The notes beneath the pieces were generated by a model, which was not told where the DNA came from, made no database searches, and saw only the letters and a program-made list of their open reading frames with translations. Source: Isurus oxyrinchus (taxonomy: Eukaryota). Taken from it: a stretch of 64,000 nucleotides of DNA. This document shows positions 7,411 to 64,000 of the stretch, one piece after another (positions within the stretch are counted from its first letter, which is position 1; each line of letters begins with the position of its first letter). Location: positions 98,518,001-98,582,000 of the forward strand of contig JANJGN010000011.1 of the NCBI GenBank assembly GCA_026770705.1. The letters run 5' to 3'. The position numbers and the translations under genes were made by a program.

Positions 7411-8858
7411 AACAAAAAACTACGGATGCTGGAAATCCAAAACAAAAACAGAATGACCTGGAAAAACTCAGCAGGTCTGGCAGCATCGGCGGAGAAGAAA
7501 AGAGTTGACATTTCGCGTCCTCATGACCCTTCAACAGAACTAGGTGAATCCAAGGAGAGGGGTGAAATATAAGCTGGTTTAAGGTGGGGGGGGCGGGGGG
7601 GGTGTGGTGTGGTTGTAGGGACAAGCAAGTAGTGATAGGAGCAGATCATCAAGAGATGTCACAGACAAAAGAACAAAAGGTGTTGAAGTTGGTGATATTA
7701 TCTAAATGAATGTGCTAATTAAGAATGGATGGTACAGCACTCAAGGTACAGCTCTAGTTGGGGTGGGGGGGGGGGCATTAAAGATTTAAATAAATTATTG
7801 GAAAAAACAAAAGGAAGGGGGAAGAAACAGAAAGGGGGTGGGGATGGAGTTCAAGACCTAAAGTTGTTGAATTCAATATTCAGTCTGGAAGGCTGTAAAG
7901 TGCCTAGTCGGAAGATGAGGTGCTGTTCCTCCAGTTTGCGTTGGGCTTCACTGGAACAATGCAGCAAGCCAAGGACAGATATGTGGGCAGGAGAGCAGTG
8001 TGGAGTGTTAAAATGGCAAGCGACAGGGAGGTTTGGGTCATTCTTGCAGACAAACCGCAGGTGTTCTGCAAAGCGGTCGCCCAGTTTACGTTTGGTCTCT
8101 CCAATGTAGAGGAGACCGCATTGGGAGCAACGAATGCAGTAAACTAAGTTGGGGGAAATGCAAGTGAAATGCTGCTTCACTTGAAAGGAGTGTTTGGGCC
8201 CTTGGACAGTGAGGAGAGAGGAAATGAAGGAGCAGGTGTTACATCTTTTACGTGGGCATGGGGAGGTGCCATAGGTGGGGGTTGAGGAGTAGGGGGTGAT
8301 GGAGGAGTGGACCAGGGTGTCCCAGAGGAACGATCCCTACGGAATGCCGCCGAGGGGGTGAAGGGAAGATGTGTTTGGTGGTGGCATCATGCTGGAGTTG
8401 GCGGAAATGGCGGAGGATGATCCTTTGAATGCGGAGGCTGGTGGGGTGATAAGTGAGGACAAGGGGACCCTATCATGTTTCTGGGAGGGAGGAGAAGGTG
8501 TGAGGGCGGATGCGCGGGAGATGGGCCGGACACGGTTGAGGGCCCTGTCAACGACCGTGGGTGGAAAACCTCGGTTAAGGAAGAAGGAGGACATGTCAGA
8601 GGAACTGTTTTTGAAGGCAGCATCATCAGAACGGATGCAACGGAGGCGAAGGAACTGAGAGAATGGGATGGAGTCCTTACAGGAAGCGGGGTGTGAGGAG
8701 CTGTAGTCGAGATAGCTGTGGGAGTCGGTAGGCTTGTAATGGATATTGGTAGACAGTCTATCACCAGAGATTGAGACATAGAGGTCAAGGAAGGGACGGG
8801 AAGTGTCAGAGATGGACCACGTTAAAATGATGGAGGGGTGGAGATTGGAAGCAAAACA
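7411..8858 (-). mobile_element. Penelope-like element (RT C-terminus, GIY-YIG endonuclease, 3' region), inserted in a SINE
   Basis: ORF 7851..8180 NLVYCIRCSQCGLLYIGETKR...RFAEHLR is a PLE GIY-YIG domain. TSD GGAGATAAA at 7402-7410 and 8859-8867. Confidence 0.9.
7503..7541 (-). ncRNA. Minimal type I hammerhead ribozyme motif (variant core, partly decayed) in a PLE
   Basis: Minus strand reads AGTT-CTGTTGA-A-GGGTC-ATGAG-GACGC-GAAA-TGTC-AACT. Confidence 0.55.
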
Positions 8859-17777: not shown

Positions 17778-17906
17778 GGCCAGGATTTTCTGGTCCTGTC
17801 TCGGGCGGGACCCGCTGCGGGCGAGGTGGTGCCCCAACCAGAAGTCCACTGACTTGCGGCGGGAGCAGAAGATCGCGGCAGCGGGTGGGTGCGGAAAATC
17901 CCGCCC
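17778..17906. mobile_element. 129-bp Harbinger/Tourist-like MITE
   Basis: TIRs GGCCAGGATTTTC / GAAAATCCCGCCC, perfect TAA TSD, CpG-rich. Confidence 0.8.
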
Positions 17907-20950: not shown

Positions 20951-21211
20951 TTACGCTAAGAGAACTTCATACGCACAGGCAAATGTTTCCAGGTAGTTTG
21001 AAAGTACAATAAATAACTGATATTTTTGATTTCAGATGGGGTTTGAAAATTTTGTTTACAAACAGTTAAAATCCATGTCACATAACCTGCTTCTGCAACT
21101 GATCTCAACTACATACAACATTAACAACATTCCTTCTCCAGAGCTACAATGCTCCAAATAAAATCTAAAATATTTGTCTTCTTAATACCAAAACATAAAG
21201 TTAGAACTTAC

Positions 21212-26111: not shown

Positions 26112-26961
26112 GTGTTCCTCTCCGCAGATGCTGTCAGACCTGCTGAGTTTTTCCAGGAATATTTTCAAGCCTTGTGCCTTTTTTGAATTACCCAGGAGCT
26201 TGGGGAGCCTATAAACTCCCCTTTGCTTTCTCTAGGGAAATGCCTTAGCCAATAAGAGTCGACTTGCCAGCCAATAAGAGTCGACTTGCCAACAATCAGC
26301 ACTCTTTTCTCCTGTAGTATAAATTGCTGTGAGCGTTTGAAATTTGGCATTTTTGTGTTTGTCCTGATGAGTGGAAGATAAAAAACCTCAGCAACATGTC
26401 TATTTTTTCAGCAATATGCAAGCTCTGTACTATCAAGTGACAGAGAGATAATGGGTACTTGCCTGCTGAATGATGTAGAACCCCCACAATCATAAATTTA
26501 AGCTCATCTCCTGTCAGAGAAAGTTTGCTTGTCAACCTCTCTATCGATTAACTAGTTTTCCTTCATTTGCTCAAATCTCATTGTCCCTTTTCCTCCAGCA
26601 TCTTATCCAAAACTTCATCCGTCTACTAGGCCCCACTCTCCTGTTCTATTTGCCTTTTTTCCTGACAGAGTCCAAATATCACCCTAAGTGATATGACTCC
26701 CCATGTTCAATGCCTTGGAAGATTGATGCTAATGTAAATCACCCATGGTAAACTGGATTATAAACTGTATTGTAATGGCAGGAGCACAATAATACAAAAT
26801 ATATGATTTACTACTCTGTCAGTAAGGTATTTGAAGTGATCTGTCTATTCAAGGCAGGTTCTATAAGTCTGCACAGCTAGAAGTAACGCAGAATTTGACT
26901 GGCAGGGAATTTTCCAGATTAGAACATGCTCGTTAGGTTCAGGTTACAGCTCAAAAACATT

Positions 26962-27607
26962 GGGCAGGGTTTTTCATATGGCGGGCGTGCTTGGTGGGAG
27001 CGGGCATGGAGCTGATCATTGCCTGCGATCAGCTCCGCACTGCCATTTTACACAGGTGGGCCAATTAAGGCCCACCCAGCATAACACACGGCCGGTAGCG
27101 CTCGTGCAGGCGGGGCAAGGGAGGAGAGTCGAGGCCAGCGATCTTTCGTGCATGCGCACAAATGAGCGCTTCAATCTCCCTGAGGCACGGAGCTGCCTCA
27201 GCGAGATTGAATCGATAATAAAATTATTAAATAAAAGGTGTGAAAATGTATTTAGACATGTCCTCACATGAGTTGGGACATGTTTTCAAATTTATGAATT
27301 TTTATTTATTTATTTAATAAATGCTTCAGGAAACCTCATCCCACTGGGGGATGAGGTTTCCTAAAAAACAAACGCCGGTTGGCCCTTTCGCCTGCCCACC
27401 AGCCTTAGGGTTGGACGGGCAGCGTTTAGAATAACTTTAATTAGATCCTTAATGGCCTTAATAGGCCGTTTACATATCGGTGGGCACACAGCCGACTCTG
27501 GCATGTGCCTGCCGAGCGAAGCATCGCTACTGTGTGTGATGACGTTGGGACGCACACTTGACATCATCGAGCATCAGCACCCGCACGCTGATCTGAAAAT
27601 TCTGCCC
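26962..27607 (+). mobile_element. Harbinger-type triple-hairpin element (family A)
   Basis: TIRs GGGCAGGGTTTTTC / GAAAATTCTGCCC, perfect TSD ATT, internal hairpins. Strand is an arbitrary reference for the family. Confidence 0.85.
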
Positions 27608-27739
27608 ATTAAGTTTATCCAGTCCCCGTGCAAGCCTTAGCTCAGCAGCACCACTCTCTCCAGGTCAGAAGGTCATGAGTTCAAGCCCATTTCAAGGATA
27701 TAGTGGAAAATAAACCAATAAACAAACAGCCTTACTAAC

Positions 27740-27816
27740 CTTATCGGTACTGTGACAGTTATTGGAAGTCTAAATAAAGGACCTGCGTTAGGAGCAGTGG
27801 TGTCATATCCACAAAC
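27740..27816 (-). CDS. TPP2: TPP2 exon (~15), 77 nt
   Basis: TGCAG|GTT...AAG|GTTAGT. Encodes VCGYDTTAPNAGPLFRLPITVTVPI(R); phase 2 matches the next exon. Confidence 0.95.
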
Positions 27817-28564
27817 CTGCAATAAATGAATAAATGTTAATAAATGAATAAATAATAAAATAGCCAAATCATGCCTGATACAATGCCACGGAGTATTACA
27901 ATACTGTTTGCGGCCAAAAAGTTAAAACATAATTAAACATAATTATAACATTAAAACTAAATAGAACGGAGTAAGCATTTCACACTAGTAGCACATTACG
28001 ACCACAGAAACAAATGTTTTCAGTGCATTGGGGAACATAATTTCTGGTTCGCTGTTATTCTGCATAATAATCATTTTTAACCACATTCTGAATTATTATA
28101 TAACTGCACAGCACAGAATTTGTTCTAGTTTTCTGGGTTTCACATCAAACAAAACCAGATGTCTCATGTAGGATTAAGTTCTTCACGATACATAAAAGTT
28201 ACACTTTCAAAAAAGCTCAATAAAATTATAACTACCTTCCAGCAAATCTTTAACATCAATTTCATTGCAGGAAAATAATGATGCAAGTTTTGACTTTGGC
28301 AAGGGTGTTAATGTCAGGTGTGTAAAACCGTGTTACACGCCCCATCTGATTTTCCTCTCCATTGAGTTCAATGTTAGGGTATATAATGGGCAGCCAATCT
28401 GATGCTGCCTGTTTTATATCCAAAAGAGGCAGCTTCTCTTCCCCTTTGCAATGCATAAATGCAACTCAAATACTGTTACTTTTTGAGAAAATCAAGCATA
28501 TTTTGGAAAAACAGAAAACACTGTGCATATTTACTAAATAAAGACATTATCTAGTACAAGATAC

Positions 28565-28722
28565 CTCAGTAAAATGCACTCCTTCACGAAGGCCACGTGG
28601 ATCCACTCGTATGGTTATATGTCTACACTGATTCATCAGCTCCAAGTGACTGGGACACTGAATCCATGATGCATTGCATGTTAAAGCCAAGTGAAGTTGC
28701 AGAGATATGCGTTCAGAGTTTT
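28565..28722 (-). CDS. TPP2: TPP2 exon (~14), 158 nt
   Basis: GGCAG|AA...GAG|GTATC. Encodes [52 protein letters not shown]; visible in ORF 28547..28729. Confidence 0.97.
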
Positions 28723-28808
28723 CTGCCAAAAATGAAAATTTGAAAAAGGAACATCATTAAGTCATGTGCTAGGCTGTGAAATCTAACCACATTGTTGGTA
28801 AGAGGTAT

Positions 28809-31081
28809 TGTTAGGATCCCAGCTGAGGTTACCCCTGGATAAGCCTGATCCCAGGGTGGAACCCAGCTTGATAGATCCTAACTTTTATTTATTTAGCTAC
28901 GAGGAGAGTAGCTACTGAATGGAGTCACAGGAGTCAGCTGATGAACTTTTAACAAAAGAATAAAACATTTATTCAACAAGAAAAGATGAACTATATTACA
29001 ATACTCCTTCACCTGCAACTATACATTTTACAGATTTGTAAGGGTAACACAAGTTACAAAGCTATCTTATACTCTAATGTCATAGTAAGTACATAGTCCA
29101 TGTAAACCAATAGATACCCTGTAGTCAGACACACCACACTTTGAAGACAAAGGCTGAATCTTCCAGTTGGCGTGCGGAGGTGGGCCTGACACACCGAAGC
29201 GTTAAATGACGCGCAATGTCAGGCATGCGTCCCGACATCATCACGCGCCATCGTGGTATTTCGCTAATGGCCTATTAAGGCTGTTAAGAACGTAATTAAA
29301 ATATTTAGGAATGCTGCCCGTGCAACCTTAAGGTTGGCAGGCAGGCGAAAACCCCAAGCAACCTTCACGTTTTAAAGGAAACCTCATCCACGGGTGGGAT
29401 GAGGTTTCCTGAAGCTTTTATAAAACAATTAAATAAATTTCCCCACAAACATGTCCCAACTCATGTGACATAGTCTCCTGAGGGGACACGTTTGAATAAA
29501 TTTTTAAATAATTTATTGAAGTTTTTTATTGTCTATTTGATCTCCCTGAGGCAGCTCCATGCTTCAGGGAGGTTGCTGCGCTCTTTCCTGCGCATACGCA
29601 AAAGAGCGCTGACACTGACACTCCCTCCTTCCGCTGCCCGCACAGATAGGGCTGAGCGCTACCAGCTGCGCATTATGCTGGGTGGGCCTTAATTGGCCCG
29701 CCCGTGTAAAATAGCTGCGCGCAGCCGATCCCGGGCGGCAATCCGCTCCGTGCCCACCTCCGCCCGCTCCCAGCCAGCTCACCCGCCATAGGAAAATTCC
29801 AGGCCTAAGTGACAGATGCCACCTCAACCAGGTGTTATGGACCTCTCCTCAACTCCCTGCAAATGCTCGTCACACCATGAGCCAACCGGTCTCACTGCAC
29901 TCCGTCTTTCACATCAGGGTTTTCAATCCCCACTCTCCAAGACTTCGCCTTGGAATCTTTTCCCAAACAGATGCTTTCTTTCAGATATCTTCTGCAAGGG
30001 TTCACGTCCAGGGTTTCAAACTCTCCTTCTAATGTTTCTTTTCCCTGGGTCACCACATGCATTCAAGCTGTCTTCCATGTGCTCACTCTCACCAACTCAG
30101 CTCAGCAGTAACTGTATACCACTGTGTCACAAGCCCAAAGCAAAGGATTGCAGACCTTCTACGTGGCATATTCAAGCACCTGACAGCAGAACTCAAAACA
30201 CATCAGCCCCCAGATATCTTTTTTTTAAATTATATTTCACCCCGAACATTTCATCCCATTTTGCCAGTGCAACGAGTGCGAAGTCGCACGGGCAACGAAA
30301 ATCACAGATAATAGGATTTTTAATGGCCTTAATTGGCCTTTTAATTGTTGTCAGGTGCGGCGCTGACTCCTGCACACACCCGCCAACCACATACATTCAA
30401 GCTGTCTTCCATGTGCTCACTCTCACCAACTCAGCTCAGCGTTTACTGTATACCACTGTGTCACATGCCCAAAGCAAAGGATTGCAGACCTTCTGCCGTC
30501 TCTTTGGACCTTGATGCCTCTTGCAAGCTGTTCTTCCTTTAAATATCCTTTCTGCAGCTTTTGTCTCTTTAAATCTGAAGCTTAGGGCTTTTCTCTCTGC
30601 CCCTCACTCTTAACTTCACTTAACAGAACCTTTTCCAGGTTCCTGTTCTTCCTTTGACTAGAAGGTCTGCTTGGGATTTTCCCCTGTTCCACTCCTCTGG
30701 ATGTTGGGGTCTTTCTTTAGCTTGGCTCTGGCTATCTGCCCCCTTCTAGATTGCTTCGTTGGCAGCTATCTTCAAAACCAGCTGAACTCCAAAGTTTCCA
30801 AAACAAACTGCTGTTTTGTGTGCGTCAGTGAGAGGGAAGCCTCTCTGGGCCCCTGTTGCCAGGCAACAGTCCAATTCTTCTACTCTTCTTTGTTTATCTT
30901 AGCTTAAGTCGTAAAACCAAATAGAAATGCAGGCACATTTTTAAAGTGAAACTAAAACTCAACTTGACCTTTAACATACAGATACAGAAATACAAACCAA
31001 ACTTAAGCTTTAAAGCTAAAACTCATTCCTAGCACCTACAAATACCAATATAACTTACGTATCTATCTCTATTTCCTAACA
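28809..31081. mobile_element. Solo LTR with a 4-bp TSD, hosting a MITE and a templated insertion
   Basis: Termini TGTTAGGA...TCCTAACA; TSD GTAT at 28805-28808 and 31082-31085. Confidence 0.85.
29151..29805 (-). mobile_element. Family A triple-hairpin element, inverted relative to the 26962 copy
   Basis: Termini AGGCTGAATCTTCC...GGAAAATTCCAGGCC, TSD CAA/TAA, same three hairpins in reverse order. Confidence 0.85.
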
Positions 31082-32321: not shown

Positions 32322-32979
32322 GGCCAGAATTTTGTGTTGATCAGGCAGGCATGCGCTCAACTCAAACACAAGTGAAATTGCGCAAAATGACATCGGGCAT
32401 GCATCCCAACATCATCGCGCATGCGAGCAATTTTGAGGTTGGCGGGTGTGTGCAGGAGTCAGCGCCGCACCCGACAACAATTAAAAGGCCAATTAAGGCC
32501 ATTAAAAATCCTATTGTCTGCGATTTTCGTTGCCCGTGCGATTTCACGCTCGTTGCACTGGCAAAATGGGATGAAATGTTCGGGGTGAAATATAATTAAA
32601 AAAAAGATATCTGGGGGCTGGTGTTTTTTGAGTTCTGCTGTCAGGTGCTTGAATATGCCACGTAGACACAGTTTGGTGCGTTTTTTCCTGTCATTTAATC
32701 TGTCTAGGTCTGCCGCTCCCTGATGCAGCTCTGCAACAGCTGTCTGCCTTCAGGGGAGCTCGCTAGAAGCGCCCACCCACACCCTCACTTTTGTCAGTGT
32801 CTGACCTCTTCCTAGCCCCCTCGGCAGCGCTGAGGCTTTCTCAGCACGTGTTTCATGCTGGCTGGCCGTTAATTGGCCAGCCAGAGTGAAATTGCATTCA
32901 GGGGCCGATGGTGGGCGTAAGTGCATTTTGCTTCCAGGCCTGCCGACTTGGTGCACACACCAAGCGTGAAATTCAGGCC
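32322..32979 (-). mobile_element. Harbinger-type element related to family A
   Basis: Termini GGCCAGAATTTT...AAATTCAGGCC, TSD CAT/CGT, shared subterminal motifs and a degenerate CTCCCTGA hairpin. Confidence 0.75.
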
Positions 32980-34749
32980 CGTGTAGGATTTGATTCGATG
33001 ATTATAATATTTTTCCCTTTTTTTAGTGTCAATATTTTTGAAGTTCCATTATTTTTCATGATTTGTGTATTGATCCCCCACCTTTCCTGGACCATAATTT
33101 TGCCTCTAGCTGTTTCATGTCACTTTCTCATCTACAACTTCCCTTTTCTTTTTATATATTTGTCTTTGCCATTCCAGTTTCTGCTATTCCTGTAGTCGTT
33201 CTATTCCTATTATTTTCAATATATCTCCATTGCAATCTGAAGATTCAGCACGATTCTGCTAAAGAGAAACTTACCTGAACTAAAACCCACCATAGTGTTT
33301 AACTAAAGCTAGTGCTTTCTCTATGCATTTGCAATTTAAAATATCCTCCTGGTCTCTATAATTCACGTTAATCAATAAATACTTCGTAATTATGAATCTA
33401 TACAGATATCTCACATTCTTGGCGACACGGCTATATTTCTGTGGGAACGTTTCAGATTGTCTATCGTCAACACAATTAGTACAAATTGAACAAGAGCTGA
33501 AGCACTAGATTTTATTAAATTAAAAAAAAGATGTTTCCTAAATTCCTAATATTGTTTATCTAGTTAAAAAAAGTCTTTTAAGCCTCAACTTTATCTTGCC
33601 TACAAGCTACTTCACAGTCATCAATCTTGTAACATTAATTCCCACCTTAATTTAACTTTGCATTTACATAGCACATGGCCTTGGGACATCCTAAAGTCCA
33701 TGTAATTATTTCAAATCTATTGTTATGGTAGCAAACTTATTGATGTATATATCTGAAGTAGCTCCTTAGCCAATGTCTTGCCTATTCTAAAGGCAAATCT
33801 CCCGTTCAAATCTCTAGCAACTAAATGCTAGTACTAATTCTTTGTAGATTTCTCCAATCTTTCTGGTTTACACAAAAAGTATCCAATAACTCTGTAGTAA
33901 AGACGTTACTGGTTGTTGCCACTAAACAAAGACTTTCACAGAACATAACTAAATTTCAATGGAAACCATGAGAATAAATAGCTACTCTAAGTATCTGGAA
34001 AGGATCTATTATGGCATTCATTAATTTCAGAATATAGCATTATAATGCAGCAACATGTGAAATGTCTGGACTTCAGAAATGGAAATGTATGGTCAAAGGA
34101 AACAAAACTATTACCCATGTTCAAGTTGAAGTTCTACTTTCAGGTATATCTTTGTAATGATACAGTAATACAGTACATTGAAGTACCAACCAATAGTGCC
34201 AATGAGTGGTGTAACACTGCTTACAAATACTAGGATGCTGAGCTCTCCATCTCTGGATTACTACATTTATATCACTGTACCCATTATATCAAGACGCACA
34301 AACCAGCTAAGTAGAAATAGATGAAGTAATTCTAAAGAATGGATGAACAATGATAGAATGCATAAAATGAGGAATATGAGGAAAATCAAATCGATCCCAA
34401 TTATAAGGAGGTAAAAGACAGAGAAAAAAGAATTAACTGCAAATGTGAACAAAAAATGTAGTCTATGTACTGCCATGCTCTGAGTTTAAGAAACAAATTG
34501 GCTATTATAAGTGATAATATCACAGGAAAATACAAATTTGATAGCAACAAGAAGAAATGTGGCTGCAAAAATTGACAGATATTGAAGATTGGGTTGAAAT
34601 AATACTTGTAGGTGAAACAGTAAGTCTGATAACATGAGTAAAGGATGTAATGTATGCTGTAACAATGGCTGACATACACAAAAAACAGTTTCAGGCATAA
34701 GTTAACATGGTTTTGGATCAAAGATGAAAACAGAGTGTTACATTATCCT

Positions 34750-52085: not shown

Positions 52086-52708
52086 GGGCAGGATCTTTCG
52101 GTCGACGAGCGGGGTCGGGACCTGCTTGCTAACGCATAAAATGATGCAGGATGACGTCGGGTGAAACTCCCGACGTCACCCCACGTCATTTCTATTTTCA
52201 GGTCGGCAGGGGCGCAGCCAAGTCAGCTGTGCGCCCGCTGACCTGTCAATGGCCTGAGGCCATTGAGAAACTAATTAAAATCATTAATGGACCTGCCCGT
52301 CCAACCTTTAGGTTGGTGGGCAGGCTGGGAGCCCTGGCGAGCTTCAGAAAAAGCATGAAACCTCATCCACGGGCGAGATGAGGTTTCACAAGGGTATTTA
52401 AATTTTTAATAAAGATTTCAGTTAAAGTTATGGCATGTCCCAACTCATGTAACAGTGTCACATAAGGGGACATGTCAGGAAAATTTTTCTTATTATTTTT
52501 ATTGCAAATTTTAATTTGGAGCCAATCTCCCTGAGGCAGCACTTAGCCTCAGGGAGATCAGTGCGCTCTTTTGCGCACATGTGCGAAAGAGTGCACTTCC
52601 GGCTGAGGGCATCCCCCCCACCCACACAGGGCGGTTGTCACGTTGGGCAGGCCTTAATTGGCCCGCCCCGATCGGAGGTGCGCCCACCTACTCCCGCACT
52701 TCCCCCCC
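52086..52708 (-). mobile_element. Family A triple-hairpin element
   Basis: GGGCAGGATCTTTC terminus, perfect TSD ATG, three hairpins; partial deletion near the right end. Confidence 0.85.
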
Positions 52709-52719
52709 ATGATCTGATT

Positions 52720-58072: not shown

Positions 58073-58718
58073 GGGGACAATTTTCTCCCCGTTGGTCAGG
58101 CCATTGGGTGTGGAGCCGATTGCCACTCATGATTGGCTGCGCGCCGCTATTTTACGTGGGCGGGTGAATTAAGGCGCTCAACGCTAATTGTGCAGATGGG
58201 GGGGAGGATGGACTCGATGCCTGCGCTCTTTCGTGCACGCGTGCAAAAAAGCACAGAAATCTCCCTGAGGCAGCTCCGTGCCTCAGGGAGATTTTCAGTT
58301 CAAAAGATGTTTAAAATAAAAAAAATAAAATTATTCAGACATGTCCTCTCATGTGACAGTGTCACATGAGCTGGGACATATTTATGAATTTTAATAAAGA
58401 CTTTTGTTTAATTCATAAACCCTTCATGAAACTTCATCCCATCCATAAGAAATGCGAAGGCCGCCTGAGCTTTTCGCCTGCCTGCCAACCTTAAAGTTGG
58501 ATGGGCAGGCCTGACAGTCACTTTAACTAAGTAATTATTGACCTTAACAGGCCTTTGACAGTTCGCCAAGCACGCAGCTGACTCCAGTGTGCACCGGCCA
58601 AACTGAAGATCGGAATGATGTGCAGTGATGTTGGGATGCACGCCTGACGTCACTGCGTGTGATTTTACACATTGGCATGTGGAGCCTGCCCCTGCACACT
58701 AAATGGAAGATTCTGACC
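58073..58718 (+). mobile_element. Family A triple-hairpin element
   Basis: Termini GGGGACAATTTTC...GAAGATTCTGACC, perfect TSD TAT, 16-bp perfect stem at 58257-58294. Confidence 0.85.
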
Positions 58719-63330: not shown

Positions 63331-64000
63331 GGGCTGAATCTTCTGGCTGACGTGCGAGGGGCAAAGCCCGTACATCTGTGCTTAAAATGTTGCGCGCTGA
63401 CGTTGCGCGAGCGTCCTGATTCAGCATGCGGCATCATGATGTTTTGGTCGGCGGGCACGCTATGCAGTCCAACGCGCGCACGCCATTAATTAAAGGCCTC
63501 GTTAAGGCCATTAAGTAATCAATTGACCAGGATTTTGAGGGGCCTGTGCGAACTTTGGGTCGGTGCATGGGCCCAAGGGGCAGGCAGGTAAGTGATTTTT
63601 TCACAAACCTCATCCAGTGGTGGGATGAGGTTTGATTTCGGTTTTAAAAAAGTTTACTGAAGTGATTGTATACTTTATTAACATGTCCCATCTCATGTGA
63701 CATTTTCACAAGGGAGACATGATTTTTTTATTTTTCTATTTTTAATGTCTCACAGACTTTCAGCGATCTCCCTGAGGCAGCACTTTGTCCAAGGGAGATG
63801 TGCGCTCTTTCGTGTACATGTGCGAAAAAGCGAACTCTCGTGGTTGGGGAATCCCCTCCAACCACAGGAAGCGCATAGCGCTTACCGTCGGGCGGGCCTT
63901 AATTGGCCCACCCACGTAAAATGGTGGCAAGGCCCAATTCGGCAGTGGCGAATGGCTGCCCGCCTGCTGCCGAGTCGGTCGGGCCCGCCCGCCCATCAAG
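63331..64000 (-). mobile_element. Family A triple-hairpin element running off the window end
   Basis: GGGCTGAATCTTC terminus; hairpins at about 63604-63634, 63681-63720 and 63766-63799. Confidence 0.8.

Follow-up and report, generated by a model that had tools for sequence, protein, structure and literature searches.

A palindromic centre of fixed spacing in an abundant Harbinger-type MITE of Isurus oxyrinchus and the two-gene element that likely moves it

Why should a short, non-coding transposon carry palindromes that keep their order and spacing from copy to copy? The question is raised by a stretch of 64,000 nucleotides from Isurus oxyrinchus (assembly GCA_026770705.1, contig JANJGN010000011.1, positions 98,518,001 to 98,582,000 of the forward strand; hereafter the window). 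The original prediction, made from these letters alone, described five copies of a Harbinger-type element with three internal palindromes, H1, H2 and H3, and took it as established that MITEs depend mainly on their ends. The latter premise is too strong, since internal regions of the rice element mPing promote or inhibit transposition, an effect for which nucleosomes have been proposed as a reason (PMC9921582). The locus bears on a wider open question, namely what causes some MITEs, but not their partners, to reach 10^5 copies.

The element and its copies

A single profile recognises all five copies, each at E<=3e-151, and the order H1-H2-H3 is fixed on the alignment, which bears out the proposal of a single family (Table 1). 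The positions reported for H1 (27328-27362), H2 (58348-58370) and H3 (58257-58294) were exact when the letters were re-read, and the TSDs ATT, ATG and TAT are indeed perfect at 26962-27607, 52086-52708 and 58073-58718, respectively. The copy at 63331 extends 15 bp beyond the end of the window and is flanked by AGT/AAT, with one mismatch. The full length is about 700 bp (697-709 bp in eight consensuses) rather than the predicted 650 bp or so. Being short, non-coding, present in high copy number and uniform in length, the family is a non-autonomous Harbinger element of ~700 bp, a Tourist-like MITE with about 10^5 copies.

Table 1. Coordinates of MITE copies and of their internal features in the window (a dot marks features without strand)
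Feature	Position	Strand	Remarks
MITE copy, set A	26962..27607	-	partner's transposase-promoter end first; TSD ATT/ATT
P6, arm palindrome	27054..27077	.	common to partner's right end
H4, fourth palindrome	27138..27169	.	absent from the original prediction; perfect only in groups A-E
H3 palindrome	27174..27207	.	TIR-facing half aligns to partner leader, TATA-like box to Myb-gene ATG
Spacer 2, about 50 bp, A/T-rich	27208..27255	.	
H2 remnant	27256..27283	.	15 bp of tip deleted
Spacer 1, 47 bp, A/T-rich	27284..27330	.	length fixed across subfamilies
H1 palindrome	27325..27365	.	TIR-facing half homologous to partner sequence just upstream of transposase gene
P3, arm palindrome	27399..27414	.	
MITE copy, A-like	29151..29805	+	TSD CAA/TAA, one mismatch
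Hairpins of 29151 copy	H1 29379-29407, H2 29449-29491, H3 29540-29573, H4 29578-29609		
MITE copy, set B	52086..52708	+	TSD ATG/ATG; right TIR and terminal hairpin deleted
Hairpins of 52086 copy	H1 52358-52386, H2 52433-52475, H3 52525-52558		
MITE copy, set C	58073..58718	-	TSD TAT/TAT; one H1 arm deleted
Hairpins of 58073 copy	H2 58339-58381, H3 58257-58294		H3 loop inverted relative to set A
MITE copy, set D, apparent chimera	63331..64000	+	partner-lineage ends, MITE centre; H1 63604-63634

A hairpin peculiar to sets B and C lies immediately inside their right TIR, which the set-B copy of the window lost together with the TIR by a deletion from C-run to C-run (52690-52711) that left the TSD intact. 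The window also holds a sixth, more distant relative (32323-32980) with the family-type left arm and right end and an H3-like stretch, without H1 and H2, and a 129-bp element (17778-17906), which has comparable TIRs and is flanked by a perfect TAA duplication, lacks the centre and is a different small Harbinger-type MITE. Elsewhere in the genome, one copy (L070:5415-5946) has an internal duplication within H2.

In the 4.98-Gb genome, the 26962 copy retrieved 12,223 first-look candidates, the best of them 74-81% identical. Intact H1 occurs at 21,090 exact sites genome-wide and the reversed control pattern at none; H1 is thus not due to chance. Eighty evenly placed 10-kb pieces of the genome (800 kb) contained 20 centre-bearing copies, which extrapolates to ~124,000 genome-wide and makes the family, at ~1.7% of a 5-Gb genome, a major repeat. 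TIRs of ~15 bp, starting with G or A, bound 108 of the 151 collected copies on both sides; L015 and copies outside 640-720 bp had been left out of the first profile, and loci L031-L060 out of the copy set, 20 of these 30 being taken again at greater length. Among the 108 copies with two TIRs, 59 have a perfect 3-bp TSD, 27 a TSD with one mismatch and 22 other flanks. The central base is A or T in 94% of the 59 perfect TSDs. In the same 59 copies the target preference is palindromic beyond the TSD, with A at -5 (62%) and -3 (54%) and C at -2 (59%) from the central base and the mirrored pattern on the other side. A palindromic preference around the TSD resembling this one is reportedly found in zebrafish Harbinger3_DR. 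Strict TWA duplications are not the rule in the shark MITE, TAA or TTA accounting for six of the 59 perfect TSDs. The account in PMC4482050 gives TWA for PIF/Harbinger in the strict sense, CWG for NuwaI and C|TNA|G as the target of NuwaII. In the shark MITE, CAG or CTG makes up 7/59, and a C precedes and a G follows the TSD in 59%, but the TSDs are mixed.

A two-gene partner and the limits of its sequence in the MITE

An autonomous partner with the same TIRs, encoding a transposase and a Myb/SANT protein, had been named as something to look for. It was found in the same genome, and its PF13359 and PF13873 domains, shared TIRs and 3-bp TSDs support the proposed Harbinger-type identity. The transposase is a DDE_Tnp_4 protein (PF13359, E 1.1e-40) whose 25 best homologues are shark or ray proteins, and in 25 of the 30 best PF13359 loci a MITE-like end lies ~1 kb upstream of the DDE core. 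Eleven partners were delimited to their other end and are 3.2-5.4 kb long, six of them with perfect 3-bp TSDs. The Myb/SANT protein is encoded on the opposite strand, convergent with the transposase; PF13873 scored above cut-off in two of five frames, and a separate domain search of Myb-side partner frames gave no match, these copies being broken. From the shared ends and TSD type, the MITE is likely moved in trans by this two-gene Harbinger.

The partners themselves are very common, with 73,236 first-look candidates for PF13359 genome-wide. Stretches derived from partners of at least three lineages were seen in ~10 of 80 random 10-kb pieces (L089, L093, L103, L107, L119, L125, L127, L135, L147 and L149). 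In one of these (L149:8432-9541) a MITE centre and right half adjoin a partner 5' fragment back to back, the junction being at 8798/8799; this may be an intermediate of recombination or insertion. Short-period tandem arrays directly adjoin partner elements at L078:4500-8000 and L070:1-442. Contigs of four runs guessed to be RNA cover the coding parts of the partner, giving neither strand nor ends, and cover is thin at the partner ends and at 2257-2409 of L074; no RNA dataset was listed for the 63331 locus.

The MITE profile matches the 11 partners at their ends only, over the first ~300 bp and the last ~140 bp; overall, the MITE retains ~140-250 bp of the partner's right end. The centre (profile positions ~343-558) has no match in them at E<1. 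In the alignment, homology on the left stops at H1, at the upstream end of the transposase gene. The partner-type H1, of which there are 2,202 exact sites, has the same left half and loop as that of the MITE and an imperfect right half; in the commonest partner lineage it adjoins a TATA-like box. On the right, homology stops at H3, the TIR-facing arm of which corresponds in the alignment to the leader that runs from a TATA-like box to the Myb ATG. H4 occupies the place of this box, and the boxes are lost in the MITE. Judging from position, the gene-upstream ends of the partner would act as its promoters. H1 and H3 thus fall at the upstream end of either gene; as far as alignment tells, they are perfected versions of partner sequence that mark where this sequence stops.

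Simpler derivations failed. The MITE is not a simple internal-deletion derivative of the partner, because the two are not collinear and the centre lacks a demonstrable partner match. Homology of the centre to the partner intergenic region could not be demonstrated either; when eight centres were aligned to three intergenic consensuses (L071 left out), the reverse strand did as well as the forward strand. The hairpin arms are also not inverted repeats that once flanked partner gene cassettes, as the partner has no distant second arm. A partner with an A/B/C-type left arm was not found, the probe giving two sites, both MITE-derived.

Subfamily D, represented by the 63331 copy, is peculiar in its ends. 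Its left arm and right end are 91% and 94% identical, respectively, to the partner L062, and the left arm is only 62-65% identical to its nearest centre relatives, whereas the centre is 86% identical to them. In trees, the left arm falls within the partner clade (99/98) and the centre groups with L266 and L159 (100/99). Forcing the left arm of D to join its centre relatives was rejected (p-AU 1.4e-6, with a constraint group named after earlier trees had been seen and with L262 left out of the trees); one clade of all MITE left arms was not rejected (p-AU 0.092). Thus, D apparently arose by the joining of a MITE centre to the ends of another partner lineage. On the simplest reading these ends would have been captured stepwise, at H1 and near P6, and one outer H1 base then changed and restored the pair. 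The subfamily is rare, its outer H1 pair being found in none of the first 50 intact H1 sites. Two copies, L159:3341-3973 and L266, combine a D-like centre with a B-like left arm, and L159 already has a partner-type right end; both are possible intermediates of the end swap.

Symmetry and constraint in the centre

H1, H2 and H3 are real palindromes, but they are not the only ones. Once CpG decay is reversed, each of the four main consensuses contains 8-12 stems of at least 8 bp, as compared to 0.2-0.3 in null sequences, and about eleven dyads hold their places across the eight groups. Multi-base compensatory changes occur in arm stems, too. H1-H3 are conspicuous in old copies because they lack CpG, and the CpG-rich stems have decayed. 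In the partner consensus, one stem lies in the first 300 bp and four lie in the last 250 bp, and 1.5 kb of interior is free of stems. The centre at 58200-58480 folds at z = -6.2. An Rfam scan of 26900-29900 returned five matches at E<=1, all far below the gathering score. Likenesses of the stems to host-factor motifs (GC box, CRE, NRF1, E-box, AP-2, p53 half-site) we take to be too short to count.

What is kept between subfamilies is sequence and geometry. In the H1 and H3 cores of the eight consensuses, 37 of 44 columns are invariant (94% mean identity), as opposed to seven of 90 columns in the spacers (52%, near shuffle level); H2 lies at 80%. Groups E, F, O1 and O2 rest on 4-12 copies each. 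The H1 right arm is at 292-293 in all eight consensuses, the distance from H1 to H2 is 71 bp in seven and 72 bp in one, and that from H1 to H3 ranges from 147 to 153, spacer 2 being more variable than spacer 1. A set of 47 copies taken without regard to likeness gave the modal H1-to-H2 distance of 59-60 in 28 cases and another value in five; in 14 it was unmeasurable. In sets B, C and D the dyads are 83-88 bp apart. The A/T tracts of spacer 1 recur with a period of 10.5-11 bp, in the same phase in all eight consensuses, although common phase and length are partly inheritance in consensuses that are related. This periodicity exceeds the 95th percentile of 1,007 A/T-rich genomic controls in four of eight consensuses for spacer 1 and in one of eight for spacer 2. 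Correction between arms is insufficient to explain cores so much more alike than spacers, as by itself it would let paired stems drift.

The outer pairs of H1 had been said to change together between copies. They do covary, but between subfamilies and not between individual copies. In four similarity-chosen sets (118 copies, 6-9% non-CpG divergence), 7,831 non-CpG pairs were unchanged, 898 had changed on one side, 23 had changed on both sides and remained complementary (15.4 expected), and 11 showed other double changes; six of the 23 represent one shared change. G-T and A-C mismatches were equal in number (112:110). Inserted copies thus mostly decay, paired changes belong to the masters, and post-insertion correction of the palindromes is too rare to maintain the stems. 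Likewise, the expectation that stems are better conserved than their flanks holds strongly between subfamilies and weakly after insertion, where private substitutions in the H1-H3 stems number 297 against 386 expected from trinucleotide context (0.77 of expectation). This deficit concerns G/C sites (4.3% vs 6.1%) and not A/T sites (P = 0.32), and it could stem from search bias, top hits having been chosen, or from intermediate masters.

Of 21 scorable set-C copies, 15 have the H3 loop inverted, as do the 58073 copy of the window and one set-A copy; the H1 loop is inverted in one copy, and one inversion call in set D is doubtful. Loop inversion is the footprint assigned to template switching of hairpins, by which compensatory changes, stem extension and loop inversion arise in single steps in rRNA genes (Monttinen and Loytynoja 2022, PMC8794818). 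From these inversions, stem symmetry would owe its origin to template switching also here. Lineage-private hairpins are present, and perfection is graded: in groups O2 and O1, with left arms nearest to the partners, H4 is missing and H2 and H3 are imperfect; F takes a middle place, and A-E are the most perfect. Symmetry is therefore likely derived and growing. Palindrome correction, which the original prediction had considered, probably supplied the symmetry, a reading that the loop inversions support, but it cannot account for the fixed core sequence and spacing. The family is probably a clear case of covariation in stems that results from template switching at the DNA level and is no sign of RNA structure.

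The losses of the H2 tip at 26962 and of one H1 arm at 58073, which had been described as expected of extruding hairpins, are real in these copies but not typical of the family. Only three of 79 deletions touch H1-H3, and 33 fall in the GC-rich H4-P5 stretch (sets B and D), which gives extrusion no support; sets B, C and D have one H2 deletion each. The H2 tip is kept in seven of 30 set-A copies, a set chosen by likeness to the tip-less query, and extrusion-driven loss was rejected.

Explanations of the centre and known systems

What, then, might the centre do? The explanation that we favour, and to which we give an even chance, is that H1-H2-H3 forms a cis-acting DNA module of fixed geometry that favours transposition of the partner-mobilised MITE. 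The module would consist of symmetric, putative protein-binding sites, with A/T spacers in helical phase linking them; in lineages that are active, template switching would make and extend the symmetry, and selection would act on those copies that go on transposing, not on the host. The amplification of a loop-inverted master in set C indicates that the flip was tolerated, as would be expected of a symmetric DNA site. Precedents are the effect of internal mPing sequence on mobility (PMC9921582) and the binding of a subterminal motif by the Myb-like protein of Harbinger3_DR (PMC9710019). Mobility as such does not require the centre, since partners transpose without H2 or a perfect H1. Against a module of this kind, the older groups O1 and O2, in which H2 and H4 are missing or imperfect, also amplified, and, as the dyads differ in sequence, it cannot be taken for granted that a single Myb domain binds every one of them. 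In a more specific and distinctly tentative form, the helically phased, three-dyad centre of ~170 bp would be a transposition-enhancer cassette with its own ancestry, which shapes a nucleosome or the transpososome and is carried between the ends of autonomous Harbingers. If this were true, an exchange of ends at H1 and P6 would let the MITE outlast each of its partners.

Other explanations start from the same observations. Given that each gene has H1 or H3/H4 at its upstream end, the arms could be the inward-facing promoter regions of the partner, and the centre a two-way transcription stop in which a poly(A) signal in each spacer, around the palindromic H2, ends both inward transcripts and so limits double-stranded RNA and silencing. 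In 21 of 35 copies there is an A[AT]TAAA at +30 to +34 from H1 (shuffle mean 2.2, maximum 8), where the phased A-tract of spacer 1 can thus also be read as a poly(A) signal, and a hexamer on the other strand lies 22-34 bp before H3 in 16 of 35 (shuffle mean 6.8, maximum 14), although these windows were chosen after the consensuses had been seen. The partner intergenic region also has opposed hexamers ~98 bp apart and short H2-like motifs, but its three consensuses gave no consistent signal when compared with the eight centres. Moreover, the top hexamer is missing from O1 and the bottom one from E, the MITE no longer has the TATA-like boxes, and neither the fixed H1 and H3 cores nor the exact 47-bp spacer would be explained. 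We consider such a stop unlikely, although it ranks first among the rivals. Of the earlier suggestion that the hairpins are terminators of convergent genes, the two-way layout resembling poly(A) signals around H2 survives; the placement does not, as H1 and H3 are at the upstream and not the 3' ends of the genes.

The hairpins might also be scars without function, formed by fold-back synthesis at two deletion breakpoints and perfected by later template switches, with the centre riding along. The position of H1 and H3 at the breakpoints, each with one partner-derived arm, the growth of stems from O2/O1 over F to A-E, the lineage-private hairpins and the loop inversions, which match the footprint described in PMC8794818, would all be in line with this. 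Yet correction keeps arms complementary, not constant, and the cores are far more alike than the spacers; double changes after insertion are barely above chance, six of the 23 being one shared change, and the length of spacer 1 was kept through heavy substitution. Scars thus seem quite improbable. Very improbable, finally, is a role of the hairpins as extruded cruciforms or as folded RNA, for example a small-RNA source, under selection at the level of the host. The deficit of private substitutions in H1-H3, most visible at G/C sites, would fit such a role, but A/T sites show no deficit, G-T mismatches are not favoured over A-C, Rfam gave nothing near a gathering score, deletions avoid H1-H3, and a master with an inverted loop was amplified.

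If the centre is a module that favours transposition, a discrete stretch of 210 bp becomes a candidate cause of high copy number, for which natural controls exist in the partner ends, the older imperfect groups, the end-swapped subfamily and the loop-inverted subfamily. It could also inform the design of Harbinger vectors.

No description of this centre architecture turned up among the papers searched. PMC9179366, PMC13668399 and PMC5753468 provide general background. The group in which this repeat is so abundant was once reported to be without PHIS elements (PMC4482050), which was corrected later at the superfamily level (PMC8455134, PMC12498223). Four known systems, at least in those parts of their descriptions that were compared, come close. 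In Xenopus tropicalis, Harbinger-N12A_XT is, like the shark element, a vertebrate Harbinger MITE with palindromic internal repeats; it is 342 bp long, has 3,521 copies and was studied as a source of liver enhancers, with no parent mapping or subfamily covariation in the text compared (PMC12676858). Zebrafish Harbinger3_DR resembles the shark partner in its two genes, short G-rich TIRs and subterminal motifs (Sinzelle 2008, as described in PMC9710019 and PMC9179366), and its Myb-like protein binds a subterminal motif (PMC9710019). For Harbinger3_DR one 9-bp motif is reported, whereas the shark MITE has about eleven dyads of 8-22 bp in fixed places that covary between lineages. Template switching, described from rRNA genes in PMC8794818, would here have acted on a DNA transposon, where it is visible mainly between amplified lineages. 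Rice mPing, with Ping and Pong, is short and non-coding and has a 3-bp TSD like the shark MITE, and it is moved by a DDE transposase together with a Myb-like protein (PMC9921582), both types being encoded by the shark partner. No promoting internal sequence is common to mPing and mPong. Unlike mPing, the shark MITE has one palindromic centre of fixed spacing that is common to many subfamilies, lacks a clear match within the partner and apparently survived a swap of ends.
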